DNA of 64,000 bases from Bacteroidia bacterium (GTDB lineage Bacteria > Bacteroidota > Bacteroidia > UBA4408): the NCBI GenBank assembly GCA_044238735.1, contig JBIICS010000001.1, positions 5,271 through 69,270 of the forward strand, in the 5' to 3' direction. Position numbers and translations under genes: made by a program. The notes beneath the pieces are model-generated. The model saw only the letters and a list, made by a program, of their open reading frames with translations. It was not told the DNA's origin and did no database searches. Every line of letters starts with the position of its first letter. Within the stretch, counting starts at the first letter, position 1. Below are positions 7,840 through 49,396 of the stretch, one piece after another.

Positions 7840-8669
7840 TACTGTTCTATTTTACTGCATTTATACTCACCTAATATTTTAACCTTTTTGCAATAGGTAA
7901 CAAGCTCTGCCAAGGCTGCTTTGTATTGGCTATAATCATCCCATTCTAAATCCAAATGAAAATTATACTCATTTAAGTTTCCAACAATAGGAACGGATTG
8001 TATTTTAGTTAAGTTGATACGATGGTCACCCAAAACCGTTAGGGCCTTGGCCAAAGTTCCCGGATCGTGAAGTAATTGAAGGCTAATAGATGCTTTATCA
8101 GGATTTTCAACTACATCAGAGCCCTTGGTGATTACCAAAAAACGGGTATAATTTTTCTTGTTCGATTCTATATTAGAAGCTAAGATTTCCATTCCGTATG
8201 TATTAGCGGTAACTTCATTTCCAATAGCGGCAGCATTTCTAAGTTGTTTCTCCTTTATGTCTCTTGCACAACGCGCAGTATCATTACCTTCTACTACCCT
8301 AATATTAGAATGCTCCAATAAGAAAGGCTGACATTGAGAGATGGCCATAGGGTGAGAATTAATTACTTCTACTTCCTTAATTGAAACCCCCGGCAGGGCC
8401 ATTAAATGAAATTGTATGCGTACATATAATTCGCCTATAACCTTTAAATTATAATCTTCTATTAAATTATAATTAGATAAGATACTGCCGGCAGTAGAGT
8501 TTTCTATCGCCATAATTGCATAATCTGCCCTATTGTTTACAATAGCCTCGCACGTTTCCTTAAAGGTTGAACATTCAACTAACTCCAAGTCTTCTCCATA
8601 AATTTTTCGGGCGGCTAAATCGTGGTAAGAGGCCACTATCCCTTGTATTGCAACTCTGTGATTTCTCAT
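7839..8669 (-). CDS. pheA: Prephenate dehydratase (PDT domain plus ACT domain).
   Basis: It begins 'VAIQGIVASYHDLAARK' and has a C-terminal ACT regulatory domain. It is translationally coupled to the DAHP synthase gene. Confidence 0.85.
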   Translation of the reverse strand: MRNHRVAIQGIVASYHDLAARKIYGEDLELVECSTFKETCEAIVNNRADYAIMAIENSTAGSILSNYNLIEDYNLKVIGELYVRIQFHLMALPGVSIKEVEVINSHPMAISQCQPFLLEHSNIRVVEGNDTARCARDIKEKQLRNAAAIGNEVTANTYGMEILASNIESNKKNYTRFLVITKGSDVVENPDKASISLQLLHDPGTLAKALTVLGDHRINLTKIQSVPIVGNLNEYNFHLDLEWDDYSQYKAALAELVTYCKKVKILGEYKCSKIEQ

Positions 8670-8701
8670 GTTGTTTTAAAATTTAGTGTTAATATTCGTT
8701 C

Positions 8702-8727
8702 AAAAAAAAAGCCCCATTACTGGGGCT
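8702..8727 (-). terminator. Intrinsic terminator ending the minus-strand adhesin-locus transcript.
   Basis: The hairpin AGCCCCA-ttac-TGGGGCT is followed on the minus strand by a run of nine U (an A9 run on the plus strand). Confidence 0.65.
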
Positions 8728-8950
8728 TGAAATATCATAAAATCAAACTAGCCCCTAAATCGGAGTTTGGTAAAATAAAAAAAATAGTTGGCATTATTTA
8801 GGTAACTTGTAATCATGCTGCGAATATATTAAAATTTATATACTTCTAACTTACATTAAGGATTAACACAGCGTTTACTCTCTTCTTCTAATTAGGGCCT
8901 ATTTTAATCATTTACATTATTAATTATGAGTTTTACAAGTTTATAACTAT

Positions 8951-8965
8951 ATAATAAATAGGGCT
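8951..8965 (+). repeat. 15-mer ATAATAAATAGGGCT (containing the ATAAATAGGGC box), left border of the adhesin locus.
   Basis: An exact match to 19869-19883. It starts 2 bp beyond the stop codon of the 458-aa gene. Confidence 0.5.
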
Positions 8966-8966
8966 T

Positions 8967-10343
8967 TTAATCAATATTTGACACCAGATACTTGTGATAA
9001 TCACATTTTAAATTAGGGATAATTTCAGAACTCTTTATTTTTGAGCCCATTGCTAATTTCTTAAAGTGCGCTAAAACCAATGCATTATCATTACCGGTAA
9101 AAACTTTGTTTTTGTTAATATTTAAATAACGTTCGGTTCTACCGATCAAGTTTAAGGCAAAATCTTCATCGCGTTTTTTTAACCAATATAAAATCTCTAA
9201 TAACCGAGACCAGATGTTTATATAAAAATTGTCGCCAGATGTTAAATTGTTAAGATTCTGCTTAAGTGTTTTATAATCTTCTTCCGTATAAGCAACCAGC
9301 GATCTTATCAGAATCAGCATTTCATTATTATCATTTTTAAAGTACTTCAGCTTACTTCCGTTAATTAATTTATTCACCTGGTCGGACTTGCCTTGAAGTA
9401 CCAATAAAAACAAATAATAAAATAAGGTGGCATCATCATAATATTTATATGATTCATTGTGTTCCAGGGTTTTTTTAACCGTGGCAGTTAATGGTGCTAT
9501 GGGCCATCCAAAATGAAAGCCTGCACTAATCTTAGTAAACAGAACCCTTCTCGTCCACTTTTGCTTTTCGTCGCTTTTGCTTAAAACAGATGAAACCCTT
9601 CGTTCGCAATTCTCTATATGTTGTTTAAAGAACTCTTCATCACTAAAATGAAGGCGTGCAAGAGAAAGCTCATAAACAATACTGTAAATGGAGTCCTTTG
9701 TTTCTTCTATTAGGTCTTGAAAGTTTTCTAAGGAAGGGAGAATGGCGTTCTCTATAAAAGAAGAATCATCAATATACATATTACTAACTATGTTATAATA
9801 TTCGGATTGATTACGATGATACAACTCCCTGATAAAATTTACTTTTTGCTCTGCCAGTTTTTTAATTTGTTGTGTTGCTTTATCAGTTTGCACTTTTGCA
9901 AAGCTGGTTATAAAATTATCTAAGCAAATACTTTGTGAGATTATATCATCCCTTTTCTTACTCTCTGCAAATGCTTTGTCGAGATAATAATCTAGAAGAT
10001 ATCCGTTGCTCGATCCCAAAAACTCCTGAACCAGAATCATGTTTTTAGGAAGTTCATCCAATTGCAATCGCTTATTCACTTTTACATACTCTATTTCTTT
10101 GCAAGCAAAATCTATGAATCTGCGTATCGATTTATCTAAAGTTGGGCTTAATTTTCCGTTTTTAATAAAACAGTTCTCAATCTTGGTGTTTAATTTTTCA
10201 AAATCTTCGTAAGGCCTTTTGGAAAGAACATCATGGAGATATCGATGTCTCTTATCGTTACTTTGCTTACAAATATTAATGATGGTTTTTCCTTCAGAAG
10301 CATCTAGCGTTTCAATTAAATGATATAATCTCTTGCCTTTCAT
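8967..10343 (-). CDS. Hypothetical 458-aa all-helical cytoplasmic protein, the last gene of the adhesin locus.
   Basis: A long ORF lacking a signal peptide. It lies 75 bp downstream of the SprB-repeat gene on the same strand. No motif was recognised. Confidence 0.55.
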   Translation of the reverse strand: MKGKRLYHLIETLDASEGKTIINICKQSNDKRHRYLHDVLSKRPYEDFEKLNTKIENCFIKNGKLSPTLDKSIRRFIDFACKEIEYVKVNKRLQLDELPKNMILVQEFLGSSNGYLLDYYLDKAFAESKKRDDIISQSICLDNFITSFAKVQTDKATQQIKKLAEQKVNFIRELYHRNQSEYYNIVSNMYIDDSSFIENAILPSLENFQDLIEETKDSIYSIVYELSLARLHFSDEEFFKQHIENCERRVSSVLSKSDEKQKWTRRVLFTKISAGFHFGWPIAPLTATVKKTLEHNESYKYYDDATLFYYLFLLVLQGKSDQVNKLINGSKLKYFKNDNNEMLILIRSLVAYTEEDYKTLKQNLNNLTSGDNFYINIWSRLLEILYWLKKRDEDFALNLIGRTERYLNINKNKVFTGNDNALVLAHFKKLAMGSKIKSSEIIPNLKCDYHKYLVSNID

Positions 10344-10418
10344 AGTAATTATTTTTACGTTAATAGAATACCACTCTAAATATAAATTTAGATAATAATT
10401 TCTTGTTTATTATTTTAA

Positions 10419-12815
10419 CTACCTCTTTAGTGTAATATATCCCGAAAATTCTTTTGCTACACCGTTAATGGTGGTGGCGGTTAACAGGTAATAGTATGTT
10501 CCGTCTGGGGCAGTGCCACCAGACTGTGTTTTGCCATCCCAAACACCGTTTACACCATTAAACTCGAAAATTTTAAGTCCCCAACGATTAAATATTACAC
10601 AATTCAAATCTTTATATCCACTTTGTGTTATTTTAAATTCATTATTATCTGTGTCTCCATTTGGAGTATATATATTCGGTATAAATAGCTGTGATATTAT
10701 TATCTTAATGGTATCGCTGGCAACACAGCCAAAAGCATCAACAGCAGTTACCTCAACTATAAACTCTCCCCCTTGTGTGTAGGTATAACTATTTTGACCG
10801 TTTGTGGTTGAAGCCTGTGTTCCATTTCCATAATTCCACGAATACTGAACCGCTGTAGCACTTGTTGCTGTTAAATTTACTAATTGAGGAATGGTTTCGC
10901 TGTATAATGGATCGCCGGATAAACTAACCGATATATTTTGTTCGCCGATATTAACTACCGAATCGGCTTTACAATCGTTTACATCCTTTACTACTATGAA
11001 ATAAGATCCTGATCCTAAATTACCGAAAAGAGGGGTTGTAACGAAATTTGCACCATTATCAATACTGTATTGTATGGGTGTACTACCTCCTAAAACGTTA
11101 ATCTGTAAAGACCCATCTGTTTGATCGCAATGTTCTACATCTATATCTAAAGCACTTATAGTTGGTCCGGGAATATTGCTTAAAGTAACTGTAACGGTAT
11201 CTTTACAATTATTAACATCATTTACTATTACCTGATAAGAGCCGGATGCTAAGCTAATGTAATTAGTTGTACTATTTTGTGAAATTCCATTTAACTGGTA
11301 GGTATATGGAGATGTTCCACCGGTAGTATTAACGGAAATACTCCCATTTGTTTTATCACACTTTTCATCAACTTGCGTAGATACTGAAATAACCGGCGCC
11401 GGTATCTCGGTTACAGAAAACGATAATGAATCTACACAACCGTTAGCATCACTTACATATGCCCAGTAATTTTGAGCTGATTGATTAATAAAAACACTAT
11501 CGGGTTGAGGTGTACCTCCATTTAAAAAGAAACTATAAGGACTATTGCCTCCGGTTGCGTTTAATTCGAAGCTGGCGTTGTTTTGTCCACAAAACTCTGG
11601 TTTAATAATATTTACCGATGTTAAATCAGGACCATTAGCGTTAGTTAAGATAATAGAGGTGTCTGCCGAACACTGCCCTGAACTAACCGTAATGGTGTAT
11701 GTACCCGCCGTAAGGTTTACAAAAATACTGTCGGATTGAAGGGCCCCACCGTTAAGGGCGTATTGTAAAGTTCCTGCAGGCGTGGCATAAATAATCACGG
11801 ATCCACTTGAAGTACAACCGGGCTGAATAATTTTTAAACTATCGATAACGGGCCCCACGCCAATTTGATTTATGGTAAAGAATGTATCTTTTGCACAACC
11901 CGATGCAAATACCTGCAATGTATAATTTCCTGCTGCCAAGTTAATAAAAACTGAATCGGCTTGAGGAGCGCCGCCGTTGATAGAATAGGTAAAAGGACCG
12001 GTTCCGCTTGTAACGGTTACAATCGCTTTTCCTGTATCTTGTCCACACGAAGTACCGGTGGTTGTAATTGTTAAACCTATTGAAGCTCCTATGGGTTGAC
12101 ATATTCCATTACATGAGCCCTGGGTAGCATTTGAACCCAAACTCCATACTGAACCACCATCAACCGAACGTGAAACCGTTTTGCCTATAAACGCTGCGCC
12201 TACGGCAGAAGAAGAACAATCGCCTATATAAACAATACTGGTAATATCTTTAGCCATGCCTAATACAGCGGGAGTACATGGGCCCCCCGGAGAACAGAGA
12301 ACGTTATCAAATTCACCTCCTGTATTTATATTGTTTGCGTTTGTGGCCCAATAAATAGCATCTAATGGATTTCCGGTAGGATCGTAAAGGGCAATGTAAC
12401 CGTTACCATTGTTTAAGTGCCAGCGATTATTATAGCAGATGTTATTGGTTAAGCGCTCGTTAAAAAGGTTAACATCTACGTTTGGGCCTGCGCCAATTGT
12501 AATAAATCCGTGAGGCGGTATTTTAGTGCCAATAGGAAAAGAGTAGGCACCGTAATTAGTACCATCGGAAGTATTGGATCCTAATATAAAGCAACTTATG
12601 TCTGCCGAGTCGCACCCATTCTTATTATATAACTCTATCCATTCTTGTCCGGTGCCTGTGTTGTTTAACAATGACTGTATGTTGGCGTTAGTATTGTCAC
12701 CAGTTGGAACACCATAGTTAGTTCCCGGCATTACCATAACCTCGTTAATCACAACCTGCGATTGGGCTTTTAAACCTAAGGAAAGAGCAAAAAATGTGTA
12801 TAATAATTTTTTCAT
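10419..12815 (-). CDS. T9SS cargo adhesin with an N-terminal lamin-tail domain, an SprB-type repeat array, a PKD/Ig-like region and a type-B (gliding motility-associated, CHU_C) C-terminal domain.
   Basis: Signal peptide '..LKAQSQ'. The lamin-tail motif is 'VINEVMVMPG...EWIELYNKNGCDSADISCFIL'. It carries six or more repeats of the form 'C..NGS(I/L)...GG..PY.Y.(L/I)NG......F.NL..G.Y...V.D.N.C'. The C-terminus is 'IPNIYTPNGDTDNNEF...FNRWGLKIF...WDGK...PDGTYYY'. Confidence 0.85.
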   Translation of the reverse strand: MKKLLYTFFALSLGLKAQSQVVINEVMVMPGTNYGVPTGDNTNANIQSLLNNTGTGQEWIELYNKNGCDSADISCFILGSNTSDGTNYGAYSFPIGTKIPPHGFITIGAGPNVDVNLFNERLTNNICYNNRWHLNNGNGYIALYDPTGNPLDAIYWATNANNINTGGEFDNVLCSPGGPCTPAVLGMAKDITSIVYIGDCSSSAVGAAFIGKTVSRSVDGGSVWSLGSNATQGSCNGICQPIGASIGLTITTTGTSCGQDTGKAIVTVTSGTGPFTYSINGGAPQADSVFINLAAGNYTLQVFASGCAKDTFFTINQIGVGPVIDSLKIIQPGCTSSGSVIIYATPAGTLQYALNGGALQSDSIFVNLTAGTYTITVSSGQCSADTSIILTNANGPDLTSVNIIKPEFCGQNNASFELNATGGNSPYSFFLNGGTPQPDSVFINQSAQNYWAYVSDANGCVDSLSFSVTEIPAPVISVSTQVDEKCDKTNGSISVNTTGGTSPYTYQLNGISQNSTTNYISLASGSYQVIVNDVNNCKDTVTVTLSNIPGPTISALDIDVEHCDQTDGSLQINVLGGSTPIQYSIDNGANFVTTPLFGNLGSGSYFIVVKDVNDCKADSVVNIGEQNISVSLSGDPLYSETIPQLVNLTATSATAVQYSWNYGNGTQASTTNGQNSYTYTQGGEFIVEVTAVDAFGCVASDTIKIIISQLFIPNIYTPNGDTDNNEFKITQSGYKDLNCVIFNRWGLKIFEFNGVNGVWDGKTQSGGTAPDGTYYYLLTATTINGVAKEFSGYITLKR

Positions 12816-13227
12816 GATAAAAATAACTAGGGCAAAATTAGGGTAAATCTACCGTTTTAGAAATCAAATTGTCCTATTTTGTCACATCTATAAATCATGT
12901 TCCAAACCATAATTTTTTAAAAAAGTATAAACAGGCACTGCTAATGGAAGATGATTTTCTATTTATTGGTTCATTAAAACATAAGCCAATAATGGATATT
13001 AAAGAATATATATAATAATCCCGATTTAATAACTTAGTAAAGTTTCGTTACGCGTGATCGAAATAAAAAATAAAACGCCCTACTTGTTTCGGCTTATTTT
13101 TAATTACAAATACGGCACTTTCTAATTAAAATTTAATCTAATAATTGGAAGTAGCCTATTTTAACATTTTTGTCCCGACTAACTCCATTTTTAGAACTGG
13201 ATTAAACCGTAAGATTTAAGTTACAGA

Positions 13228-16200
13228 TTAATAATCGACACTATTTTTTAGCGCATGAAAATTATAAAGAATTTCGTTGCTGGATCCAACAACCTGAAAG
13301 AAATAAAGACCCGTTTTAAGATTATCCAGGCTAATTAGGGCATTGCCATCTATATTATATAGGGTTTTCACCAATCTTGAATCGGACGAGAATATGTTAA
13401 CGGTTAAATTGGACTCGTTTATATTTTTTAATTGAATAGAATTAGAGAACGGGTTGGGATAAAAGCCTGGTTTTAGTTGTTCCTTGCAATTAATGTAAAC
13501 CAGATCGCTATACGCCGATGTACCGTCGAAATCTACTTGTTTAATACGATAATAGGTAACGCCCAGACTGGAAATACCTAAATCGTTATACTTATAATTT
13601 AATGTACTGGAAGAATTTCCTGCCCCTTTAATCGTTCCAATAGCATCAAAGGTTTCTCCGTTAGTGCTTTTCTCAATAACAAAATAATCATTATTTAATT
13701 CTGATTCGGTAGACCAGGAAAGGCTGGTGCCTTTACTACTGCAGTTAGCACTTAAGTTTGAGAATTTTACGGGTAAAGGGGTAGTGCATGTTTGACAGCC
13801 AAACGGTGCTTCAATATAAAATGTGGAGGCTGCACCTCCGTTTCCGTCTATATACAGGTAATAGGTTTGACCAATTGTTAATCCTGACAGATTAAATTGA
13901 ACATTGCCTGAAATCCCGTTAACATAAGGGTCTGCTTGTGCTTCGAGGTAGGGGGAGAAGTTGGCATTGAATTCTGGGCATCCGCCGCTTGGTACGCTAT
14001 AGGTTCCAGAACTGCATCCGCCTGATCGGGAAAAAATGATGGGCTGCGTTTCTATTTGGTTAATACCGCTGTGAATGCCGCTTAGAGTAAGATAAGCTGT
14101 TGTTGCTGATGCAATAAAGGAGAACCAGGCGCTGTTATTGTTTGCTCCGTTCCAGGAACAGCCGGCCGTTGTGGTTCCGGGCCATGTTGAGGCATCTTCA
14201 CTGGCATACCCATTATTTGTACCTATGGTAACAAATCCATCTGAACCAATGCATGCAACGCCTGTACATTCATTATTGGCCGAACTAGTTGTTAAATCAT
14301 TTGTTTTTATTGTTGGCCCAAATATGAGTTCCACACTGCTGAAGCTGATGCCTGAACCCGAACCGTCGTCTTGCTCGCACATGGAAAATGTCCAATTTCC
14401 GTTTGGATTTTGATTGTTAAAGGTGCTTGCAAAGGAGTTGTCGGTTTCAACAGCGTAGTATCCTATAGAATAGGGGAACCAGGCTCCTGGAGAGCTGTAT
14501 TGATTTACTCTCTCCAAAGCCGGATGATCTCTGAATTTAATATTTGCATAGGTCGAGGTAGTTGAGGCACCGCCTAAATTGGAAATGAAATTGTATACAG
14601 TGCCTGTTGGGGAGGTTAAACTGAAGTCGTAGGTTGACAAATCTCTGAGACAGCTAGAGCTGCCAATATTTACATTTATCTGAATAAGCTGGTTGGTGCT
14701 TGTGTTAAGTAAACTCAAGCCTGAAACGGCAATCGTTCTGGTTAAACATTCTGAGGTTGTTGAAGCAGATCCCCAGCCACCACAAGCTACAGAAGTAGTG
14801 TTTGAAAAGATATTTTGCTGCAGAACAAAAAGTATTGCGCCACCACTTGTTACTGATCCACAGGAATTAGTTACAACACACCTGTATTGGTAACCATTAA
14901 AGGTGTTTGTGGGATTTGTAATTTGAAGGGTTGATGTTGTTGTTCCACTATAGAGTGCTGAATTAGAAATATTCGACCAACTGCTGCCTCCGTTTGTACT
15001 AACTTCCCATTGATAGCTCGCTCCGGTTAGAGGAACGGGCAAGACCCCAAAGGATGCGTTGCCAGATTGGTTGTAGACTGTGTCAGAAACTGGATTTCCT
15101 TCAATTTGGATACCTATCGCCATAGCGATTATATTCGAGCTTAATGCGCTGGCCCAAGATGATGTACAGTTTGCTTTAGCCAGTCTCCTGAACCAAGTTG
15201 TCTGACTTAATAATCCGGGATCATACGTTGCTGATGTGGCGCCAAGGATATCGGAATATCCGGTTCCAGAATTACTGGTGGACTGTTGCCATTTGTATTC
15301 GTAGGGGCAACTTGTTCCTGATGGTAGAGTTAAAGACGATATTGTTGTAGGGTCGAACGCTGCACAATTTGACTGAGCATTGCCTATTGTGCCACCATTG
15401 TTAACATTTATACAACTTACGGTCATCTCAATAACATTAGATTCAGCGGCCCCCGACCAATTGCTTTGGCAGTTTACGCGAGCCAGTCTTTTATACCATG
15501 TGGTTTGGCTGATTACACCGGGGTCATAGGTGGTACTGTTCGATGAACCAATGTCTGCAAATCCCGATGAAGAACTTGTTGTAGACTGCTGCCATTTGTA
15601 TTCCAGAGTGCCGTTTTGCCCGCTGGGAAGACTCACAGATGTAATGGTAGTTGGGTCGAATGATCCGCAGTTACTGCTTTGTGCGTTGCCGATAGATCCT
15701 GCACTGGTAGGGTTAAAACAGGGGGGGAGAATAGTTAAGCGAATTACAGGTCTGCTTGTAGATCTCGCAGAAACAGTTGTGAAACCACAACCAACACCTC
15801 CACCTGAACCTGTTCCTCCGTCGGATCGCTGATATTTTGTGCAGGTATACCCAGGGCTTGTTATATTCAATTCTCCTTGAGAAGTATTTGGATCTTGCCT
15901 TCCCCAACAAATCTGAATAATAATGTTTGAAGTTCCGTCCCAACTGAATAATGTGGAGAAATTGATGGTTCTCCATCCTGTTGAGGAGAAGGCACTTTCG
16001 GAAGTACTAGAGTATACAGTGGTTACCGCATCCATATCGCCTGCGGTAAAATCGGTTTGAGCGGTAGAGGCAATCCCAATGGCGAAGGAACTCAATGTGT
16101 TTGATGCGGATGAAATATTCAGGGAAATTTGGGAAAGACTTCCAGCACTTCCTCCTGCGGCAGTTATCTCACTGGCTCTGATTAAGTATTGAGTTTTAGC

Positions 16201-16368
16201 GCTTCGCCAGGTAGTTCTAATTCCAACGAAGGCATCATTTGTACTGGTAGTTCCCAATGTCCCAAGTGTGATTGTCGTCTGTCCCGCAACATCATTTAGA
16301 ACAAAAAAACACGCCAGCAACCAGATAAAAGGACTAATAAATTTGATATTGTAAATTTTGTATTTCAA
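13228..16368 (-). CDS. Giant secreted adhesin-like protein (1046 aa), Ser/Thr/Gly/Asn-rich, with Ig-like modules and a type-A T9SS C-terminal sorting domain.
   Basis: It has a signal peptide, an internal tandem duplication of ~100 aa and an Ig-like module ('YQWEVSTNGGSSW...YRCVVTN'). The C-terminal 'FYPNPFSNSIQLKN...GLYFFQV' is the Por_Secre_tail pattern. Confidence 0.8.
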   Translation of the reverse strand: MKYKIYNIKFISPFIWLLACFFVLNDVAGQTTITLGTLGTTSTNDAFVGIRTTWRSAKTQYLIRASEITAAGGSAGSLSQISLNISSASNTLSSFAIGIASTAQTDFTAGDMDAVTTVYSSTSESAFSSTGWRTINFSTLFSWDGTSNIIIQICWGRQDPNTSQGELNITSPGYTCTKYQRSDGGTGSGGGVGCGFTTVSARSTSRPVIRLTILPPCFNPTSAGSIGNAQSSNCGSFDPTTITSVSLPSGQNGTLEYKWQQSTTSSSSGFADIGSSNSTTYDPGVISQTTWYKRLARVNCQSNWSGAAESNVIEMTVSCINVNNGGTIGNAQSNCAAFDPTTISSLTLPSGTSCPYEYKWQQSTSNSGTGYSDILGATSATYDPGLLSQTTWFRRLAKANCTSSWASALSSNIIAMAIGIQIEGNPVSDTVYNQSGNASFGVLPVPLTGASYQWEVSTNGGSSWSNISNSALYSGTTTSTLQITNPTNTFNGYQYRCVVTNSCGSVTSGGAILFVLQQNIFSNTTSVACGGWGSASTTSECLTRTIAVSGLSLLNTSTNQLIQINVNIGSSSCLRDLSTYDFSLTSPTGTVYNFISNLGGASTTSTYANIKFRDHPALERVNQYSSPGAWFPYSIGYYAVETDNSFASTFNNQNPNGNWTFSMCEQDDGSGSGISFSSVELIFGPTIKTNDLTTSSANNECTGVACIGSDGFVTIGTNNGYASEDASTWPGTTTAGCSWNGANNNSAWFSFIASATTAYLTLSGIHSGINQIETQPIIFSRSGGCSSGTYSVPSGGCPEFNANFSPYLEAQADPYVNGISGNVQFNLSGLTIGQTYYLYIDGNGGAASTFYIEAPFGCQTCTTPLPVKFSNLSANCSSKGTSLSWSTESELNNDYFVIEKSTNGETFDAIGTIKGAGNSSSTLNYKYNDLGISSLGVTYYRIKQVDFDGTSAYSDLVYINCKEQLKPGFYPNPFSNSIQLKNINESNLTVNIFSSDSRLVKTLYNIDGNALISLDNLKTGLYFFQVVGSSNEILYNFHALKNSVDY

Positions 16369-16423
16369 GCTGTTTTTTGCTATATCACAAATTTGACGAT
16401 ACCATAATGAAAGAAAAAAGCAT

Positions 16424-16445
16424 AAATAGGGCGAATGCCCTATTT
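16424..16445. promoter_or_regulatory. Perfect 9-bp-stem hairpin AAATAGGGC-gaat-GCCCTATTT that contains a copy of the ATAAATAGGGC box, 56 bp upstream of the giant adhesin gene.
   Basis: The inverted repeat is visible directly in the sequence. It lies in the divergent promoter region between 16368 and 16954. Confidence 0.4.
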
Positions 16446-16953
16446 ATTTCTGAGAAAATTATTAGACCTTTGAGTGTTTAAAGGCCTCTCTGGTTGTTGT
16501 CTGCCTTAATTAAAGCGTGATTAAATTTTTGGTTCTACTATTAGTTAAAAAATGGCTTTTGGAAATACTTTGTGGTGTTTTTTTAGATTTACCTATCTAA
16601 CCTTTAAAATAGTATCCCCATTTATTACTAATTATAAATCCGATTTAAAACTAATGAAAAAAATATACTTTTGATTTATCTAAACCAATAAAAAATATTC
16701 AATTTATAATTTTGCAGTAAAGGTAAGTATTTACTAACTGTTTATACCTTTGTTTACCTTTTAAATACGTTCATATATCATACGAGATAATCTTTAATAT
16801 TTGACTATTAAATATGGCTATTTTAAATAAACATTTGATATTTTATAGACTATATGTGCTATAAATATAAATTAAAGAATAGGGCATATTTGCCCATATT
16901 AATTCGCTAAAAAAAAATAGGTCTGCTAAATTTGAATAAAAGCTATTAAACCA

Positions 16954-19872
16954 ATGAAACGATTATATATTGCTACCCTGTTAATGACCTTGAGCATAGC
17001 TTCGTTGGCTCAGGTTGTGATTAATGAAGTAATGCATAAACCAGGTCCAAACAATAACACGAACCAAGGTATTAGACGAAAAGAATATGTGGAGATATAC
17101 AATAAAGGGTGTTCTCCCGTTGATATCAGTTGTTGGGTGGTAGGTTCTGCCGGAATGGGTATTCAAACAGTGACTAATCCTTCTTATATAGGGGCCTTTC
17201 AGTTTCCTACCGGAACCATTATTAATCCAGGACAACACTTGGTTGTGGGTGGCACCGAAACTCAAAATAACACTGCATACAATGCCGCCGACATTGATTT
17301 TCAGGTGAGTCAGTTTTTAAACACCAACACCTGTGATCCTAATACCAACTGGCTTTTGCCTAATGGTGATGGTTGGATTGCTTTATATGACGACACCGGA
17401 ACTCCCGTTGATGCTGTTTATTGGTCGTTCAGCTCAACGGCTCCAAATTTGGCAACAGATGACGATTATGCATCAAACCCATGTGTTCCTTCCGCTTGTA
17501 GTGGTATCACCTCTTTAAGATCAGCCAGACAAATTATTGCTAATTTTCCAACCCGAATTTCATTTACAGGTTCCGCAACTTCAAACGATTTAACCTTTAG
17601 CAGACTTCCTGATGGGGGAACCTGGACGCGCAACGTAGCCCCAAGTATTGCTGGCTCTAACCAGTGTAATAGTGGACAATGCTCGAGTGCGCCCTCTTTT
17701 CAGCTTAGTTCTACCTCTACTGCTCCATCTTGTGGCGCCAGTAATGGAAGCATAAATCTAACGGCAAGTCCAACCGGGGGTGGTATTACTTACACCTATA
17801 CCTGGACACCTAACGTTTCCAGCTCATCATCTGCTTCAAATATTGCTTCGGGTACATATCAAATTAAAATTACTTCTTCAACCGGGTGTGAAAAAGACAC
17901 TAGTATAACTTTAACCAGCGGAAATGCTCCTTCCGCTATTGTTGTAAATCCTACCAACCCTTCTTGTGGTCAATCTAACGGAAGCATTAACTTAGGCGAT
18001 GTTACAGGCGGCGTAGGGCCTTATAATTATAGCTTAAATGGAGGTGCCTATTCTACTTTGCTTTCTTACCCTAACCTGGCTTCGGGCACCTACACACTTT
18101 CGGTAAGAGACTCTAACGGATGTATTTATAACGCGCCGGATGTTACTTTAAGTAACGGTTCGGGGCCAAGTGCCATCGCCACTACAATCTCTAATCCAAG
18201 CTGTGGACAAGCTAACGGGGCTATCAATTTAGGAACAGTAACCGGTGGTGTAGCGCCTTACACTTATAGCATTAATGGAGGTGCCTATTCTACTTTGCTT
18301 TCTTACCCTAACCTGGCTTCGGGCACCTACACACTTTCGGTAAGAGACGCTAACGGATGTATTTTTAATGCCCCTGATATCAATCTAACAAGCACTGCAG
18401 GACCAACTGCCGTAAACGTTACAACAGTGGATCCACAATGTGGACAATCTAACGGATCATTCACCGTTAATTCGGTAACTGGAGGATCCGGGCCATATCA
18501 GTACAGTGTTAATGGGGCAACGTATGTTAGTGGAGTTAGCACTTTTAATAATCTGGCAGCAGGGAGTTATAGTCTCGATATAAAGGATAACAACGGATGT
18601 ATTTATAATGCACCCGCTGTTAATATCAATAACTCTAATGCTCCTACTGCGGTTGCCGTTAATTTAACTCAGCCTACTTGTGGCTTAAGTAATGGAGAGG
18701 TAAATCTTGGGAATGTTACCGGAGGTACAGCGCCCTATAGTTATAATTTTAATGGACAAGGCAACAGTGGTAATTTCCAATACTCTGGGTTATCGGGGGG
18801 CAACTACAGTTTATCGGTTACAGATGCAGCGGGTTGTATCTATAATGCGCCAGCCATTATCTTAAATAGTAGCAATGCGCCAAGTGATATTTTGTACACC
18901 ATAACAAACGCAAAATGTGGTTCAAATAATGGCGCCATAAATATAACAAGCACAACAGGCGGTAGCGCTCCTTTCAATTATAGTTTAAACGGCGGACCTT
19001 CAACCTCAACATTATCCTACAGTAATCTTTCGGCTGGTAATTACTCTTTACAAGTTACTGATAACGGAGGGTGCACCTATATTGAAACCAACATAGTTGT
19101 AACCGTAACCCCGGCAATTACAAATATTATAAGCATTGTAACGAACTCAACCTGTTCTCAACCCAATGGCGCTATTGATATTAGTAATGTTCTAGGCGGA
19201 ACTCAGCCTTTTACTTATAACTTTAACAATGGAAGCCAATTTACCGCTCAAACCTCTTATGCCGGCCTCTCTGCCGGAAGTTATACCATTACTGCACAAG
19301 ACGCAAACTTGTGTTTATACACAGTAAGTGTAAGTGTTCAAAACGACAACAGTATTAATGGACCTCAACAACTTTTTACAACACTTACCCAAATTGAATG
19401 TGGAGCTAGTAATGGGGCAATAAAGATAGATTCGGTTAAAGGTGGCGTTTCACCTTATCAATATAAGTTTGAAAACAGCGTATACTCTTCTCAACTAATC
19501 TATGAAAACTTGCCTTCCGGAATTTATAACATCAGTATTAAAGATTCTAACAGTTGTGTTTTAGACACCATTGTGGTTATTCCAGAGAGCTTTGATGCCA
19601 GCGGTATATTTATTCCAAATGCTTTTACCCCAAACAATGATGCCTTTAATGCCAGCTGGGGACTTGAGGCAAACTGTGCAAAATCAGTTGAAGGTTATAT
19701 CTATAATAGATGGGGCGAAAAAATTGCTGACATTACAGATAAGGGTTTCCGCTGGGATGGAAAATATAAAAATCGTGAAGCTCCAATGGATGTATATGCT
19801 TATACTATTGAAATTACTTATTTATCCGAAAGAAAAGAGAAAAGATCAGGAGTGATTAGTTTGATAAGATAA
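16954..19872 (+). CDS. Second T9SS cargo adhesin with a lamin-tail domain, SprB-type repeats (10 or more) and a type-B (CHU_C) C-terminal domain.
   Basis: Signal peptide '..SLAQ'. Lamin-tail motif 'VINEVMHKPG...EYVEIYNKGCSPVDISCWVV'. The repeats have the form 'CGQSNGSINLG.VTGG..PY.YS.NGG.Y.....NL.SG.Y.L.V.D.NGCI'. The C-terminus is 'IPNAFTPNNDAFN...YNRWGEKI...WDGKY'. Confidence 0.85.
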   Translation: MKRLYIATLLMTLSIASLAQVVINEVMHKPGPNNNTNQGIRRKEYVEIYNKGCSPVDISCWVVGSAGMGIQTVTNPSYIGAFQFPTGTIINPGQHLVVGGTETQNNTAYNAADIDFQVSQFLNTNTCDPNTNWLLPNGDGWIALYDDTGTPVDAVYWSFSSTAPNLATDDDYASNPCVPSACSGITSLRSARQIIANFPTRISFTGSATSNDLTFSRLPDGGTWTRNVAPSIAGSNQCNSGQCSSAPSFQLSSTSTAPSCGASNGSINLTASPTGGGITYTYTWTPNVSSSSSASNIASGTYQIKITSSTGCEKDTSITLTSGNAPSAIVVNPTNPSCGQSNGSINLGDVTGGVGPYNYSLNGGAYSTLLSYPNLASGTYTLSVRDSNGCIYNAPDVTLSNGSGPSAIATTISNPSCGQANGAINLGTVTGGVAPYTYSINGGAYSTLLSYPNLASGTYTLSVRDANGCIFNAPDINLTSTAGPTAVNVTTVDPQCGQSNGSFTVNSVTGGSGPYQYSVNGATYVSGVSTFNNLAAGSYSLDIKDNNGCIYNAPAVNINNSNAPTAVAVNLTQPTCGLSNGEVNLGNVTGGTAPYSYNFNGQGNSGNFQYSGLSGGNYSLSVTDAAGCIYNAPAIILNSSNAPSDILYTITNAKCGSNNGAINITSTTGGSAPFNYSLNGGPSTSTLSYSNLSAGNYSLQVTDNGGCTYIETNIVVTVTPAITNIISIVTNSTCSQPNGAIDISNVLGGTQPFTYNFNNGSQFTAQTSYAGLSAGSYTITAQDANLCLYTVSVSVQNDNSINGPQQLFTTLTQIECGASNGAIKIDSVKGGVSPYQYKFENSVYSSQLIYENLPSGIYNISIKDSNSCVLDTIVVIPESFDASGIFIPNAFTPNNDAFNASWGLEANCAKSVEGYIYNRWGEKIADITDKGFRWDGKYKNREAPMDVYAYTIEITYLSERKEKRSGVISLIR

Positions 19873-19883
19873 TAAATAGGGCT
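19869..19883 (+). repeat. 15-mer ATAATAAATAGGGCT, right border of the adhesin locus.
   Basis: An exact match to 8951-8965. It overlaps the stop codon of the second SprB-repeat gene. Confidence 0.5.
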
Positions 19884-20033
19884 AAATTATTTTCTTTAAT
19901 TTATTTATCAGCTTATTAGGTTATAAATTTGCATCATAAAAAATAATAAAACATGAAAACAGGTGCAATTGAACAATTAATCTTACACACAACAAAGTAT
20001 TATTAATTTCTTATGGTTTTTAGTTAATTAAAA

Positions 20034-20058
20034 GGTCGCCTTGGCGGCCTTTTTTTTT
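20034..20058 (+). terminator. Intrinsic terminator downstream of the second SprB-repeat gene.
   Basis: GGTCGC-cttg-GCGGCC, with one G.U pair in the stem, followed by T9. Confidence 0.65.
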
Positions 20059-20108
20059 GCGATTAGTAAGCCTTTAGAAGATAGAAATAATGTGCAGGAT
20101 GGCTATTT

Positions 20109-20597
20109 CTAAAGCATTTTTTGCATTAACGTTACGTCTAGAATCCTGCCGAACTTTTGACCACATTTTTTTAGAACCCCAACATAGTCAAAACCATTCA
20201 TTTTGTGCAGGTATATACTGCTCTCATTTCCTTCCGTTATTCTGGCAATTAGATTGGTTAGTTTTGTTTGTTTAGCTTCGCTGCATATTGTTTCTATTAA
20301 TCTTTTACCTATACCCTTTCCTCTGAAATCGGGTAGGATATACAATGAAATTTCAGCTGTTATATCATACGCCTTGCGTTCGCTCCATTTATTTAAAGCC
20401 GCATATCCTACCACCTCTTCGCTAATAACCGCAACAATAATCGGAAAGTTCTCGTCTCTGTTTTCGAACCACTCTTTGCGGTCTGACGATGACTTTATCT
20501 CGGTATCAAAAGTAGCTGTAGTGTTTAGTATAGCATCGTTATAAATTAATCGGATTATTTCTAAATCATTAAGGGTGGCCTTACGAATATTTAGCAT
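20109..20597 (-). CDS. GNAT-family N-acetyltransferase.
   Basis: 'MLNIRKATLNDLEIIRLIYNDAI' and the acetyl-CoA-binding motif '..RGKGIGKRLIE..'. The start is placed at the internal Met. Confidence 0.75.
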   Translation of the reverse strand: MLNIRKATLNDLEIIRLIYNDAILNTTATFDTEIKSSSDRKEWFENRDENFPIIVAVISEEVVGYAALNKWSERKAYDITAEISLYILPDFRGKGIGKRLIETICSEAKQTKLTNLIARITEGNESSIYLHKMNGFDYVGVLKKCGQKFGRILDVTLMQKML

Positions 20598-20912
20598 TTT
20601 GGAAAGGTTTGAGATAAAATTATGTTTTTCTTTTGGAATAAAGAACAAAGAAAAAAGAACATAACAATCGATTCTTTAAAAATCAACTGCACAAAGGTTA
20701 AATAGTGCTGTATTGAATAGTGCAGGGTTTGCAGGAGAAGGAATTAGCATCAATTTTAAAATTTTTTGGCTTTAACGCCAAAAAAACCTTGACTTCATAG
20801 ATAGAAGAATCCGTAAAAAAGGCAACACCCTCATAAATAGATGGGCTGTCTAAAACCCCTTACAGGGTTATATCCATACAAATTAAATAGTTTTTCGTAT
20901 TTTTATAACTTG

Positions 20913-31075: not shown

Positions 31076-33127
31076 TTACTCGATAGAGAATCGCTTTACA
31101 ACAGAATAATTGTTATAATTAATTCTAACTAAATATAACCCTTTACTTAACAAGCTTATGTCTAACTGTTGTTTATTTCCTTCAATGGCTCTGGTATTAA
31201 TAATCTGCTTCCCTAATAGGTCTGAGACCTCGATATTATGAGGTTTAGAGTTCGCGCTATTAAACTCTATGTTAAGCACTTTAGAGGCTGGATTTGGATA
31301 AAGTATAAAATTATCTGTAATGCCTTCATTAATTCCCGTAACATTTGAATATAGATTGATATCATCTATATACAAGTTATTACCGGTATTATTGGTATAC
31401 TCAAATTTAACAAGCACATTAGATGCATTTAATACATTGTTAATGGTAATTAATTCTGTTCTCCATTCATTGGGTTGAGGAATAAAAGCATTCGATTGAT
31501 TAGGTGCTGTTGATAAATTATCACCATATTTAAAGTAACGCTGAAACCACGTTAAACCACAATTAGAACTTACAAGAACCCTTAAACGATTTTCTGACGC
31601 TGTTGTTTGCTGAGCATACGCTAACTTAAAGGATAAGGTTGGCGAAGGTATAGAAGACACATCTATACCGGGTGTTACAATAGCATCTACCTGATTTATT
31701 CCTTGAGATGCCCAGACGTTGTTGAGCGCTATAGAACTATTTCCGCTTGCTGATACTGAATTATTTTGTTGAAAAGCAAAAGCATCATCGTTAATTACAG
31801 TTAGTTCCGATAGAGCCTGATTAAAGTCTTCAAATCCTTCTACATAATAATTTTGGTAAAGGGCCACATTATTAAGAACATTAATAAACTGATTTTTTTC
31901 AATACTATCTGTACCTGTAATGTTGCCCGACTTAAGTTTTACTTTATACGTTCCGGGGACCGGATAAGTAATTTGAGGATTTTGTAGGTTAGATGTGGAC
32001 GGGTTTCCTCCCTCAAATTCCCAATACCAGCTGTTAGCATCAGCGTTTGAGGATAGATCGGTAAACTTAACCAGAGATTGAGCACAAACGATTCGCTTAT
32101 CCGAAGTAAAATCGGCGCGAGGAGAACAAGGCGCCGGATCATTAAAACGAATCTCGTCTGTACCGGTAGCAACAAGATTTTCTTCCTTCCATAAATTATT
32201 TCTATTTGCAATATTGCTGTTGAGTATACCAAGCATGCGCGACACTTGACCAACAGTAAACATTCTTCCGCAGTAAGAATACTCCATATAATTTTGAACA
32301 TTTTCTATAACCCCGGGAGTGCATTTAATACCGTTTACATTACAAGATACCCAACCTTCAGTAACAGGAGTATCGGATACTTCATCATCACCGCAGGATA
32401 TCCCCGGATCGTTAGTATCTCCCCACACATGTTGTAATTCTAAATAATGGCCCACTTCGTGGGTTAATGCTCTGGCTCTCGTATAATTACCGGTGCCAAT
32501 AGATCCTACATAGTCAGCTAAAATAACTATACCGTCTATCTGTGGCCATCCATCTGCACTGGTAGGATAATACGCATAACCCGCGGCACCAAATGAGATT
32601 GACTTTACGGTCCAAATATTTAAATACTTAGAAGGATCCCACTGATTAAATTTTACATCATCCTCTCCTGTATTGGTCAATTCAGAAAAAACGTGATTTA
32701 TGCCGTTGGTACAATTTCCTTGAGGATCTATTTTTGCTAATCTGAATTCAATTGTGGAAACACCCTTTAAGTCCTTAAATGCAGGCACTATGTCTGCAGT
32801 ATCTAAATTGGTAGCCTGAAAATCCTCGTTTAATATTCTAACCGCATCTCTTACTTGCTCATCCGATATATTCTCGCCCCCGTAAACATGCATAATATGA
32901 AAAACAACAGGTATAACCAGTGTTTGATTTGAATTAATCGAATTAGAGAAATTTCTATTTTTCTTTGCGGCGGCGGATGCTCTTAAGTTAGGATATTTTT
33001 TATAAAGCCTGTTCATGGCTTCCTGTTGCCCACAATGTTTAAGGTCTTGGGCTTTAATCTTTAATCCAACCATTAGAATCAGTAAAGAGAGTATATATTT
33101 CATCTTTTTATTTATTAAGTGCTTCAA
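31076..33127 (-). CDS. M43 (pappalysin/cytophagalysin-like) zinc metalloprotease with a type-A T9SS C-terminal sorting domain.
   Basis: Metzincin motif 'HEVGHYLELQHVW'. Signal peptide '..IKAQ'. C-terminal 'LYPNPASKVLNIEF...GLYLVRI'. Confidence 0.85.
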   Translation of the reverse strand: MKHLINKKMKYILSLLILMVGLKIKAQDLKHCGQQEAMNRLYKKYPNLRASAAAKKNRNFSNSINSNQTLVIPVVFHIMHVYGGENISDEQVRDAVRILNEDFQATNLDTADIVPAFKDLKGVSTIEFRLAKIDPQGNCTNGINHVFSELTNTGEDDVKFNQWDPSKYLNIWTVKSISFGAAGYAYYPTSADGWPQIDGIVILADYVGSIGTGNYTRARALTHEVGHYLELQHVWGDTNDPGISCGDDEVSDTPVTEGWVSCNVNGIKCTPGVIENVQNYMEYSYCGRMFTVGQVSRMLGILNSNIANRNNLWKEENLVATGTDEIRFNDPAPCSPRADFTSDKRIVCAQSLVKFTDLSSNADANSWYWEFEGGNPSTSNLQNPQITYPVPGTYKVKLKSGNITGTDSIEKNQFINVLNNVALYQNYYVEGFEDFNQALSELTVINDDAFAFQQNNSVSASGNSSIALNNVWASQGINQVDAIVTPGIDVSSIPSPTLSFKLAYAQQTTASENRLRVLVSSNCGLTWFQRYFKYGDNLSTAPNQSNAFIPQPNEWRTELITINNVLNASNVLVKFEYTNNTGNNLYIDDINLYSNVTGINEGITDNFILYPNPASKVLNIEFNSANSKPHNIEVSDLLGKQIINTRAIEGNKQQLDISLLSKGLYLVRINYNNYSVVKRFSIE

Positions 33128-43461: not shown

Positions 43462-44120
43462 TGACCGTTAATGAATTAACATCCCTATTTAATAAACACC
43501 GTAACCATCACAATGCCCTTCCAATGGAAGCTTATTTAAAAAATAAGTTTCCATTCTTTGGAATTAAAAAGCCCTCACGCTCTATTCTTCAAAAATCATT
43601 TATTGACTTAAATCGTTTAAAACCGGCAGAGGAACTTGAAGAGCTTGTGCTGGATCTCTTTAACAATACGGAAAGAGAATTACATTATGTGGCTATTGAA
43701 TTATTAGTTAAATCAAGGTATTATAAAAACAAGAAAAGTATTCAATTATTTGAACGGCTTTTAACTTCAAATTCTTGGTGGGACAGTGTAGACAGCATTG
43801 CGGTTAAATTAGTGGGGGCCTATTTTACGGAACACCCTAACGAGAGAGAGAAATGGATTGGCAAATGGATAAAATCCAACAATATCTGGTTAAACCGAAC
43901 GGCTATCATTTTCCAGTTAAGTTATAAGGATCATTTAGATGTTCAGTTTTTAGTCCGCGCCATTTTACCTCATACCCATAGCCATGAATTCTTTATACAA
44001 AAAGCCATTGGTTGGGCTTTAAGACAATATGCCAAGACCAATCCTACGTGGGTTAAAGATTTTGTTAGATCAACTTTACTAAAACCGCTAAGTAAAAGAG
44101 AGGCTTTAAAATATCTTTAG
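43461..44120 (+). CDS. DNA alkylation repair enzyme (AlkD-like HEAT-repeat protein).
   Basis: 'NALPMEAYLKNKFPFFGIKKPS' and a HEAT-like helical repeat fold. It overlaps the pyk stop. Confidence 0.7.
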   Translation: MTVNELTSLFNKHRNHHNALPMEAYLKNKFPFFGIKKPSRSILQKSFIDLNRLKPAEELEELVLDLFNNTERELHYVAIELLVKSRYYKNKKSIQLFERLLTSNSWWDSVDSIAVKLVGAYFTEHPNEREKWIGKWIKSNNIWLNRTAIIFQLSYKDHLDVQFLVRAILPHTHSHEFFIQKAIGWALRQYAKTNPTWVKDFVRSTLLKPLSKREALKYL

Positions 44121-44287: not shown

Positions 44288-45019
44288 TTATTCAAAAACT
44301 TCTTCTAGCACCGTTAAAGATTTAATATTTCCGAGCGAGTGCAAATAAAGATCCAGGTACTTAACAAGCAAGCGAAGCAACTCTCTTCTTTCCGAATTAT
44401 CAATTATCAAACTATCTACATCCTCAAAGTAATCTAGCGAAAATAGCTTAAACAACCATTTAGATGTAATTACACTTATGGGATAATAAATGGGTTGTTG
44501 TTCTTGTAAATGTCCGGTTTCTATATTAAAATAGGGTTTAGAGCTGCTATACTCCTCGTCGGGGCAAATACCAAAATGTTTACACAGATGTGAAAGAAAG
44601 CCGAGATGAAAATTTTTTGGATTATTTAATGAACTATTTAAATAAAGTATGGCACTAAATGTAAAATCGAATAAAGAATCCTCTCCGTGATGATCGCGCA
44701 GACATGCCCCCAGAACTTCACCCAGAAAAAGTTTAATGTTATTCTTATAAATTTCAAAAGAGGGACTTATGTTGCTCTGGATATTTAACTTTATCTCCTT
44801 TAAGCTTACAAACCCATCGTTTGGCTTTATTTCGTATTCCAGATCGAGTAAAGTAAGGGGCATTAACAATCCGCTTTTTTTATTCTTACTTTTTCCGGAA
44901 GTACTTCGCTTGATAATGGCACTTACAACTCCGTTGTATTCGGTGAAAATTTTTAAGATTACAGCGTTATCGCTATATGGGATTTGTTTAAGCACTAGTC
45001 CCCTACCCTTAACAAACAT
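44288..45019 (-). CDS. recO: DNA repair protein RecO.
   Basis: N-terminal OB-fold 'GRGLVLKQIPYSDNAVILKIFTEYNGVVSAI'. Size 243 aa. Confidence 0.8.
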   Translation of the reverse strand: MFVKGRGLVLKQIPYSDNAVILKIFTEYNGVVSAIIKRSTSGKSKNKKSGLLMPLTLLDLEYEIKPNDGFVSLKEIKLNIQSNISPSFEIYKNNIKLFLGEVLGACLRDHHGEDSLFDFTFSAILYLNSSLNNPKNFHLGFLSHLCKHFGICPDEEYSSSKPYFNIETGHLQEQQPIYYPISVITSKWLFKLFSLDYFEDVDSLIIDNSERRELLRLLVKYLDLYLHSLGNIKSLTVLEEVFE

Positions 45020-47322: not shown

Positions 47323-47403
47323 GTTTGATGCTTTAAAAATAAGAAATATTGGACTAAGTAACCGAAAAACACCAGTTTATTATATTAACTTTGAAAAATT
47401 TTT

Positions 47404-47475
47404 GGTCTTGTAGTATAATGGATATTACGTGGGTCTCCGGAACCCAAGATTCAGGTTCGATTCCTGACAAGATCA
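47404..47475 (+). tRNA. tRNA-Arg (anticodon CCG).
   Basis: The cloverleaf was folded by hand. The acceptor stem GGTCTTG/CAAGATC has one G.U pair. The anticodon stem is TGGGT/ACCCA and the anticodon loop is CT-CCG-GA. The T-arm is TCAGG-TTCGATT-CCTGA, and the discriminator is A. Confidence 0.8.
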
Positions 47476-47583
47476 CAATAAAATACAGTCTGATTGACCT
47501 TTTGATACTCGAGTATCTTTATAAATTTTAGTTAGGTTTTTAAAACAAGAAACGTGAATCCTGATAATCGCTTTATTGTTTTA

Positions 47584-48303: not shown

Positions 48304-48304
48304 A

Positions 48305-49351: not shown

Positions 49352-49376
49352 AAAAAAGGGGAGCCTTTAACTCCCC
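49352..49376 (-). terminator. Intrinsic terminator or attenuator between the M43 protease gene and the histidine kinase gene.
   Basis: GGGGAG-cctttaa-CTCCCC is followed on the minus strand by U6. The hairpin ends 1 nt before the histidine kinase start codon. Confidence 0.6.
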
Positions 49377-49396
49377 CTGAAATTAATTTAAATTTT

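Follow-up and report, generated by a model that had tools for sequence, protein, structure and literature searches.

A putative TAGGGC regulatory box in a type IX secretion adhesin locus of an uncultured Bacteroidia bacterium

The adhesin locus and its repeated motif

The DNA analysed here, called the window throughout, is a stretch of 64,000 nucleotides from an uncultured Bacteroidia bacterium that is represented only by metagenome contigs (lineage UBA4408; contig JBIICS010000001.1, positions 5,271 to 69,270). Its subject is an 11-mer, ATAAATAGGGC, with the core hexamer TAGGGC, that recurs in an 11-kb locus encoding adhesins that are exported through a type IX secretion system (T9SS). The original prediction had seen copies of this 11-mer at both borders and in the centre of the locus and had offered either an insertion of the locus or a shared cis element as the explanation. 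The locus is flanked by pheA and aroG/chorismate mutase on the left and by genes for a GNAT acetyltransferase and rbfA on the right, and its genes are the following (positions are those of the window; aa, amino acids; LTD, lamin-tail domain; CTD, C-terminal domain; ORF, open reading frame; domains assigned with Pfam/NCBIfam).

8967–10343, minus strand: 458-aa protein without a Pfam or NCBIfam match and without a signal peptide
10419–12815, minus strand: 798-aa T9SS cargo protein with LTD, SprB repeats, PKD and a type B CTD (CHU_C)
13228–16368, minus strand: 1046-aa T9SS cargo protein whose CTD is of type A (Por_Secre_tail); its gene heads the minus-strand operon
16954–19872, plus strand: 972-aa T9SS cargo protein with LTD, eight SprB repeats and a type B CTD (CHU_C)
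19953–20006, plus strand: 17-aa small ORF MKTGAIEQLILHTTKYY with its own predicted promoter of the same architecture as those described below (−7 box 19924–19931) and a terminator at 20030–20053

The T9SS sorting domains are thus present in all three large cargo proteins, being of type B (TIGR04131) in the 798- and 972-aa proteins and of type A (TIGR04183) in the 1046-aa protein.

An exact search of the window placed ATAAATAGGGC on the plus strand at 8954–8964, 16422–16432 and 19872–19882, so that the three copies and their shared orientation had been described correctly; a fourth copy, on the minus strand at 16437–16447, is the other arm of the central hairpin. The outer two copies extend, as predicted, to the identical 15-mer ATAATAAATAGGGCT, found by exact match at 8951–8965 and 19869–19883. 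The middle copy does form a perfect hairpin in the divergent promoter region: the 585-bp intergenic region holds the 26-nt palindrome ATAAATAGGGC-gaat-GCCCTATTTAT (16422–16447), with 11-bp arms and a 4-nt loop, folding at −17.4 kcal/mol with a z-score of −4.75 on the plus strand. The left 15-mer ends 1 base before the stop codon (8967–8969) of the 458-aa ORF, which lies on the opposite strand, and the stop codon of the 972-aa ORF (19870–19872) falls within the right 15-mer. Both outer copies are on the plus strand and hence have opposite orientations relative to the genes whose stops they touch. Of the proposal that copies border the locus, the placement at stop codons therefore stands, while the right copy is not the edge of the locus, the small ORF at 19953–20006 lying beyond it.

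The copies and the further sites of the hexamer in the locus are listed below. Three lineages of close relatives serve for comparison, namely lineage A (the window and contigs L001 and L036), lineage B (L042 and L043) and the sister lineage C (L044–L050 and L058–L061).

8893–8898, plus strand: additional TAGGGC in the left intergenic region; not conserved, being TACGGC in lineage C (GCCGTA on the aligned strand)
8951–8969, plus strand: left 15-mer, extending to the 19-mer ATAATAAATAGGGCTTTTA; abuts the 458-aa stop and is antisense to that gene
12828–12833: GCCCTA, 12 nt upstream of the ATG of the 798-aa gene; invariant in lineages B and C
12871–12876, minus strand: variant TAGGAC within AAAATAGGACAATTT (12862–12876), upstream of the 798-aa gene
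13077–13116, minus strand: hairpin 3' of the 1046-aa gene, its 3' arm ACAAGTAGGGC carrying TAGGGC and followed by a T-run; −13.1 kcal/mol, z −1.9
16422–16432, plus strand: plus-strand arm of the central hairpin, lineage-specific
16437–16447, minus strand: minus-strand arm of the central hairpin, retained in the sister lineage; its core is the upstream box of the predicted 1046-aa gene promoter
16875–16885, plus strand: copy with two mismatches, AAGAATAGGGC, followed by the short palindrome GGGCATATTTGCCC; its core is the upstream box of the predicted 972-aa gene promoter
19869–19883, plus strand: right 15-mer, overlapping the 972-aa stop; its core is the upstream box of the predicted small-ORF promoter

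Spacing, conservation and recurrence of the hexamer

Three copies of the 11-mer alone prove little. The expectation of about 0.05 occurrences given originally is reproduced by shuffles (0.06), but as a measure of surprise it is valid only for a word named beforehand. The same window holds 15–33 further 11-mers that are found at no fewer than three distinct loci at an equal or smaller model P, and simulated 64-kb windows contain on average 1.2, 1.6 and 3.2 rare 11-mers (those expected 0.1 times or less) that recur at three loci inside 11 kb under Markov models of order 1, 3 and 5, respectively. Matches to ATAAATAGGGC with at most two mismatches number 40 across the window against 35.6 expected. 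These counts, together with the alteration of all exact copies in the sister lineage, favour the explanation that an AT-rich word recurs by accident and was picked up by a reader scanning for any pattern, the hairpin being an unrelated local feature. We regard this explanation as unlikely; it is already strained by the spacing, the enrichment, the conservation and the recurrence of the core hexamer in homologous loci, which are taken up in turn.

The whole window was scanned on both strands for TAGGGC followed 25–60 nt later by [T/C]AnnTTTG, the −7 box of the Bacteroidota sigma-A promoter. Exactly three matches were obtained, all of them in the locus, all with a spacer of 41 nt and all with a start codon 19–21 nt downstream.

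1046-aa gene, minus strand: TAGGGC 16442 to 16437, 41 nt, CAAATTTG 16395 to 16388, 19 nt, TTG at 16368
972-aa gene, plus strand: TAGGGC 16880–16885, 41 nt, TAAATTTG 16927–16934, 19 nt, ATG at 16954
17-aa ORF, plus strand: TAGGGC 19877–19882, 41 nt, TAAATTTG 19924–19931, 21 nt, ATG at 19953

Three matches at one spacing were not obtained in any of 300 Markov-3 simulations, which argues against chance, and among the hexamers with 10–40 copies only TAGGGC and the overlapping ATAGGG give such a result. When the 11-mer at the corresponding position was compared with ATAAATAGGGC for all 102 −7 boxes in the window, four had 0, 0, 2 and 2 mismatches and all others at least 5. PMC9723704 gives −12 to −5 as the span of the −7 box in the Bacteroidota sigma-A promoter, which would place the hexamer around −59 to −54 and the full 11-mer between −64 and −54.

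A fourth site with the same phasing and two mismatches, TTAAATAGGGA, is found outside the locus at 43478–43488 on the minus strand, 41 nt upstream of CATATTTG (43440 to 43433). It is antisense, at the junction of a 475-aa (pyruvate-kinase-like) gene and a DNA-alkylation-repair gene, its chance expectation is about 0.03, and no ORF of at least 20 aa was found after the 43440 to 43433 box.

The core is concentrated in the intergenic DNA of the locus, with 8 copies of TAGGGC in 1605 nt, whereas the window's 38 remaining intergenic regions, 5916 nt in all, hold 2. This is a 15-fold enrichment at the same G+C content of 26% and again speaks against accidental recurrence. Likewise, GGGC is preceded by TA in 8 of 12 cases in the intergenic DNA of the locus and in 2 of 19 elsewhere. 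The association does not extend to T9SS cargo genes in general, as had been suggested for checking, since two M43-peptidase cargo genes and porZ in the window lack the motif. One of these M43 peptidase genes, with a type A sorting domain, adjoins porZ and genes for a LytTR response regulator and a histidine kinase at 45019–51577 (minus strand), without a TAGGGC box; the second M43 cargo gene lies at 31076–33127, also without one.

Comparison with the relatives separates the core from the longer repeats. In lineage B, whose 458-aa protein is 98% identical, the left copy and the hairpin are the same as in lineage A, and the contigs stop short of the right copy. In lineage C the 458-aa protein is 89%, PheA 96% and the 972-aa protein 80% identical, and the intergenic DNA of lineages A and C is 62–76% identical. 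At such a background a hexamer would survive intact with a probability of about 0.06–0.19, giving 0.6–1.5 of 8 sites expected, yet TAGGGC is intact in lineage C at 5 of the 8 (8959, 12828, 13077, 16437 and 16880), a retention that is hard to reconcile with chance. The exact repeats, in contrast, are specific to one lineage: the left and right copies of lineage C read ATAAGTAGGGC and ATAAATAAGGC, respectively. Its left site keeps ATAAGTAGGGCTTTTA, after which the next 115 nt or so have diverged.

The promoters show the same selectivity. Upstream of the 1046-aa gene, lineage C retains GTAGGGC and the 41-nt spacing to CATATTTG with about half of the spacer changed, and upstream of the 972-aa gene GTAGGGC stands at the same spacing. 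Its hairpin region reads GCATAAAGTTTCCACTTGCCCTACC; the hairpin is gone, and only the 16437–16447 arm retains GCCCTA, the counterpart of the 16422 arm being ATAAAGTTTCC. The conserved arm is thus the minus-strand one, which is in phase with the promoter, and the unconserved arm the plus-strand one, listed in the original prediction.

The loss of the hairpin bears on a further explanation, that the motif forms the arms of terminator-like hairpins (GCCC..TATTT and AAATA..GGGC with a T-run) that end or insulate transcripts or stabilise the 3' ends of mRNAs. The strong 16422–16447 hairpin, followed on the minus strand by the T-run GCTTTTTT, would fit, as would the hairpin after the 1046-aa gene, which has a TAGGGC arm and in lineage C keeps TAGGGC with a compensatory G-C to A-T change in the stem; furthermore, the sites at 8959 and at position 4829 of the distant contig L041 read GGGCTTTTA, and weak pairing with an upstream GCC..TATTT is possible there. 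However, the strong hairpin precedes a promoter instead of following a gene, and in lineage C it has disappeared while the promoter-proximal arm stays. The outer copies fold no better than shuffles (z −0.8 to +0.03), as does the L041 copy, and are oppositely oriented relative to their genes, and in lineage C an A-run stands in place of the T-run at the 13077 hairpin. A search of Rfam over 8500–20900 at E ≤ 1 gave only three chance-level matches, none at the motif. An RNA stability element, one of the alternatives originally put forward, is not supported, given the lost hairpin and the insignificant folds of the outer copies, and a role of the motif in RNA appears improbable. An intrinsic terminator at 16422–16447 was considered on its own and rejected: the minus-strand pattern fits, but the hairpin is upstream of the 1046-aa promoter and absent in lineage C.

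After the hexamer had been fixed from the window, it was searched for in four further loci, L041, L038/L039, L062 and L063, in which a homologue of the 458-aa protein (24–29% identity) adjoins an LTD-type T9SS gene. TAGGGC is present in the intergenic DNA of all four, with 4 sites against 0.31 expected (P = 2.9e-4), and the probability that all four would have at least one is 2.6e-5; such recurrence in independent loci again tells against chance. In L041, which is probably another organism, the alternative being a paralogous locus of the same genome, the site is ATAATAAATAGGGCTTTTA, identical at 19 of 19 positions to the left site of the window and 132 nt upstream of an LTD/SprB/CHU_C gene. 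L038 has CATAATAAGTAGGGCAAAT 144 nt upstream of an LTD/SprB/CHU_C gene, and CATAATAAGTAGGGC is also recorded for it. In L062, TTATAGGGCAAATAA overlaps the stop of the 458-family gene, 122 nt before the LTD gene, and in L063 GCCCTA follows the stop of the 458-family gene by 5 nt, as in the window. L063 furthermore has TAGGAC variants upstream of both the 458-family gene and the LTD gene, the former within the 15-mer AAAATAGGACAATTT that the window has at 12862–12876. The word TAGGRCAAATAA is common to L038, L062 and L063.

Downstream of TAGGGC, L041 (+36 to +57) and L038 (+37 to +57) share TATCTA at about 36 nt and CATCTT at 52–57 nt, with no TAnnTTTG there, and a promoter of another type may follow the box in these two loci. 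The top words of a cross-lineage k-mer screen were GGCAAAT and GCTTTTAT, each of which overlaps the 3' flank of some TAGGGC sites. Several occurrences of both, particularly of GCTTTTAT, lie elsewhere, and the screen is too small to define a matrix.

Taken together, the shared cis element that the original prediction had listed as one option, in the form of a regulator box, gains support from the 41-nt phasing at three promoters, the 5 of 8 sites kept and the four distant loci. With moderate confidence, ATAAATAGGGC, that is the core TAGGGC with an A/T-rich 5' flank, is read as a putative cis-regulatory DNA box of the adhesin locus. From the pattern we infer active promoters at the −7 boxes, a protein bound to the box and activation by it. 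In the most likely mechanism, one DNA-binding protein would dock at −64 to −54, about where class-I-type activators or upstream promoter elements contact RNA polymerase, and would co-regulate three units: the minus-strand operon of the 1046-, 798- and 458-aa genes, the divergent 972-aa gene, and the 17-aa ORF just past the 972-aa gene. The left copy may be an extra, putative binding site without a −7 box 41 nt downstream.

Several points weigh against a regulatory box. The hexamer, the spacing window and the definition of the −7 box were picked after viewing the data, and the three promoters are known only as matches to a consensus. A −7 box at +41 is missing from the left copy, the second hairpin arm and several further TAGGGC sites. 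In lineage C the small-ORF box has become TAAGGC at unchanged spacing, and the palindrome is also lost. In the distant loci the motif stands 122–144 nt upstream of the LTD gene without a canonical −7 box at +41, and the promoter phasing is therefore seen in lineages A to C only.

Insertion and recombination as alternatives

The border position of the 15-mers had suggested that the 11-kb locus was inserted and left direct repeats behind, as att sites or as a target-site duplication. Identical direct 15-mers do flank the four genes, the neighbours of the locus, pheA and GNAT/rbfA, are housekeeping genes, and the locus is missing from more distant pheA neighbourhoods. However, apart from RecO, no integrase, transposase or site-specific recombinase was detected with Pfam in the 50 main ORFs of the locus, its flanks and the rest of the window. 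The G+C content at third codon positions (GC3) of the four genes is −0.2 to +1.6 standard deviations from that of the other genes in the window, and no break in G+C or skew was found at the locus borders, so the proposed comparison of 8.9–19.9 kb with its flanks reveals no deviation; the higher total G+C of the adhesin genes is equalled by another cargo gene in the window. In lineage C the outer copies carry different substitutions, leaving 2 mismatches between them within the 11-mer, the right copy is phased with a predicted promoter whose small ORF, putatively co-regulated, lies outside the supposed border, and the motif is also seen away from the borders, both in the locus and in the distant homologous loci. 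The 19-mer has no exact match in the viral contigs of IMG/VR.

All contigs of lineages A, B and C carry the locus, as do all those with an exact or 96%-identical pheA, and the next relatives (pheA 59–65% identical) are not syntenic, as seen in pheA neighbourhoods at 62–64% identity; no empty site was found among them. A search of genome contigs found no close species representative of the window organism, the best pheA match being 51% identical, and an exact-protein look-up of the GNAT neighbour gave no match. A relative that has the locus and lacks the exact repeats is found in lineage C, and the idea of border repeats is therefore weakened. Given the missing recombinase, the normal GC3 and the diverged outer copies, att-like sites or a target duplication are not supported; we consider an insertion very unlikely, and it is better called unsupported than formally refuted. 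Most probably the copies of the 11-mer are no scar of an insertion. Their placement at stop codons and borders can be regarded as a by-product of compact promoters, because the 972-aa gene ends right where the small-ORF promoter would start and the left copy would be an extra site by the end of the 458-aa gene. Compared with genomic-island att sites or target-site duplications, the locus is alike in having identical 15-bp direct repeats around 11 kb of accessory-looking DNA; it differs in the lack of a recombinase and of a compositional deviation, in repeats that are not maintained in the sister lineage and in their phasing with promoters.

Copies in both orientations around adhesin genes, and the strong variability of these genes between strains, could also point to sites of a recombinase encoded elsewhere that inverts or excises adhesin segments, as in a phase-variation shufflon. 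Against this, gene order and orientation are the same in all 20-odd contigs of the three lineages, with no sign of inversion or excision, no recombinase gene is present in the window, and the strain differences are those of repeat number and of a diverged central region rather than rearrangements at the motif. A shufflon is accordingly given very little credence. Dispersed repeats of the REP (repetitive extragenic palindrome) or MITE (miniature inverted-repeat transposable element) type were also considered and rejected, as the exact copies are confined to this locus within the 64 kb and no longer repeat unit surrounds them. A repeat search detected only the SprB coding repeats and a weak 30-nt similarity between 12906 and 16401, and nothing that would extend the homology around the copies.

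The genes themselves differ between strains in two ways. The centre of the 1046-aa gene (13789–16318, 2.5 kb) could not be aligned by megablast with strains L036 and L042, the flanks being 98.5–98.9% identical, and is a strain-variable passenger domain; the type A cargo products measure 1046, 931 and 948 aa across strains. The LTD/SprB/CHU_C gene at 10419–12815 encodes 798 aa here and 1257 aa in lineages B and C (L042, 5034–8807; L045, 645–4418), which is consistent with a change in the number of 237-nt SprB repeats.

On the left flank, a 22-codon Phe/Tyr-rich leader ORF, MITSYLNNANYFFYFTKLRFRG, lies upstream of pheA-aroG at 8748–8816 (minus strand). It is followed at 8709–8728 (minus strand) by a strong terminator hairpin, GCCCCAGTAATGGGGC with a run of nine T, some 30 nt ahead of the start of pheA. 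There is also a segment for alternative pairing, AGGGGCT, and the leader region is almost invariant in lineage C. Judged by its sequence, the pheA leader looks like a classical ribosome-mediated attenuator.

A candidate regulator and comparison with known systems

The 458-aa protein is predicted to be all-alpha with TPR-like repeats (structure model pLDDT 71). The best Foldseek matches of the model are Rap, NprR, AimR and MalT domain III, with E values of 0.016–0.3 and TM scores of 0.3–0.4, which are not significant. Members of its family are about 450 aa long, share the conserved N-terminus MKGKRL...DKR...RRFIDFACKEIE and adjoin lamin-tail-domain T9SS cargo genes in five lineages; a word-based search among 5.8 billion proteins returned only four cluster representatives. 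Since the protein is syntenic with LTD genes and the motif in five lineages, it is the obvious candidate regulator, and it may be speculated, from context only, that this helical-repeat protein is the binder of the TAGGGC box. The second possible component is the 17-aa ORF, in which lineage C has six changed codons, five of them synonymous and one T to I, pointing to a small protein that is translated; the distant loci yielded no peptide like it. As a tentative proposal, held with low confidence, uncultured freshwater Bacteroidota might possess a dedicated regulatory module, not described before, that is made up of the 458-aa family, the TAGGGC box, the LTD/SprB-type T9SS adhesin genes and perhaps the 17-aa ORF, and in which a new type of DNA-binding regulator without a recognisable helix-turn-helix (HTH) family would dock at −64 to −54 and switch strain-variable surface adhesins on and off.

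If the regulatory interpretation is true, it provides a testable promoter architecture (TAGGGC, 41 nt, −7 box), an unannotated family of candidate regulators and a co-regulated 17-aa ORF, all belonging to the strain-variable LTD/SprB adhesins of uncultured lake Bacteroidota. It would also mean that repeats at the borders of a locus can stem from promoter boxes instead of insertion.

Among systems with a comparable protein, the RRNPP and MalT-type TPR regulators (Rap, NprR, AimR and MalT domain III) are the closest. RRNPP systems are described in Firmicutes and their phages. The 458-aa protein resembles these regulators in being cytoplasmic and all-alpha with C-terminal TPR-like repeats, and a small ORF is present in the same locus. 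It differs in that neither an XRE- nor a LuxR-type HTH was detected and in the lack of significance of the structural matches. The 17-aa ORF differs from a cognate propeptide in having no signal sequence or export signal and in lying 9.6 kb from the 458-aa gene.

The regulators PorX/PorY, SigP and extracytoplasmic function (ECF) sigma factors are described mainly for secretion-machinery genes. Full-text searches of the literature gave no description of such a box, and none of a box or regulator dedicated to one locus of T9SS cargo genes; the element would thus be of an ordinary kind, a regulator box, in a system for which none was found described. The Bacteroidota sigma-A promoter consists of −33 TTTG and −7 TAnnTTTG, with variants SM1–SM6 in Flavobacterium psychrophilum (PMC9723704). 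The three units resemble this architecture in carrying good −7 boxes (TAAATTTG twice and CAAATTTG once) 19–21 nt before the start codon. A targeted reading of the same source revealed no upstream TAGGGC element, and the Flavobacterium sprB operon is described there with sigma-54 and SM5 promoters, unlike the TAGGGC-N41 pattern.

The putative box is best compared with class I activator sites, such as those of CRP centred near −61.5, and with the operators of locus-specific regulators, such as the PlcR and MalT boxes. It differs from them in belonging to Bacteroidota sigma-A promoters with the −7 box TAnnTTTG, in having only a putative binder, in consisting mostly of single non-palindromic hexamers and in the varying distance to the gene in the distant loci. 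It resembles them in that a short specific box, with its centre near −59, stands upstream of the core promoter at a constant distance and is shared by several promoters of one functional locus, with one palindromic copy and half-site-like copies elsewhere and with the gene for a candidate regulator in the same locus.

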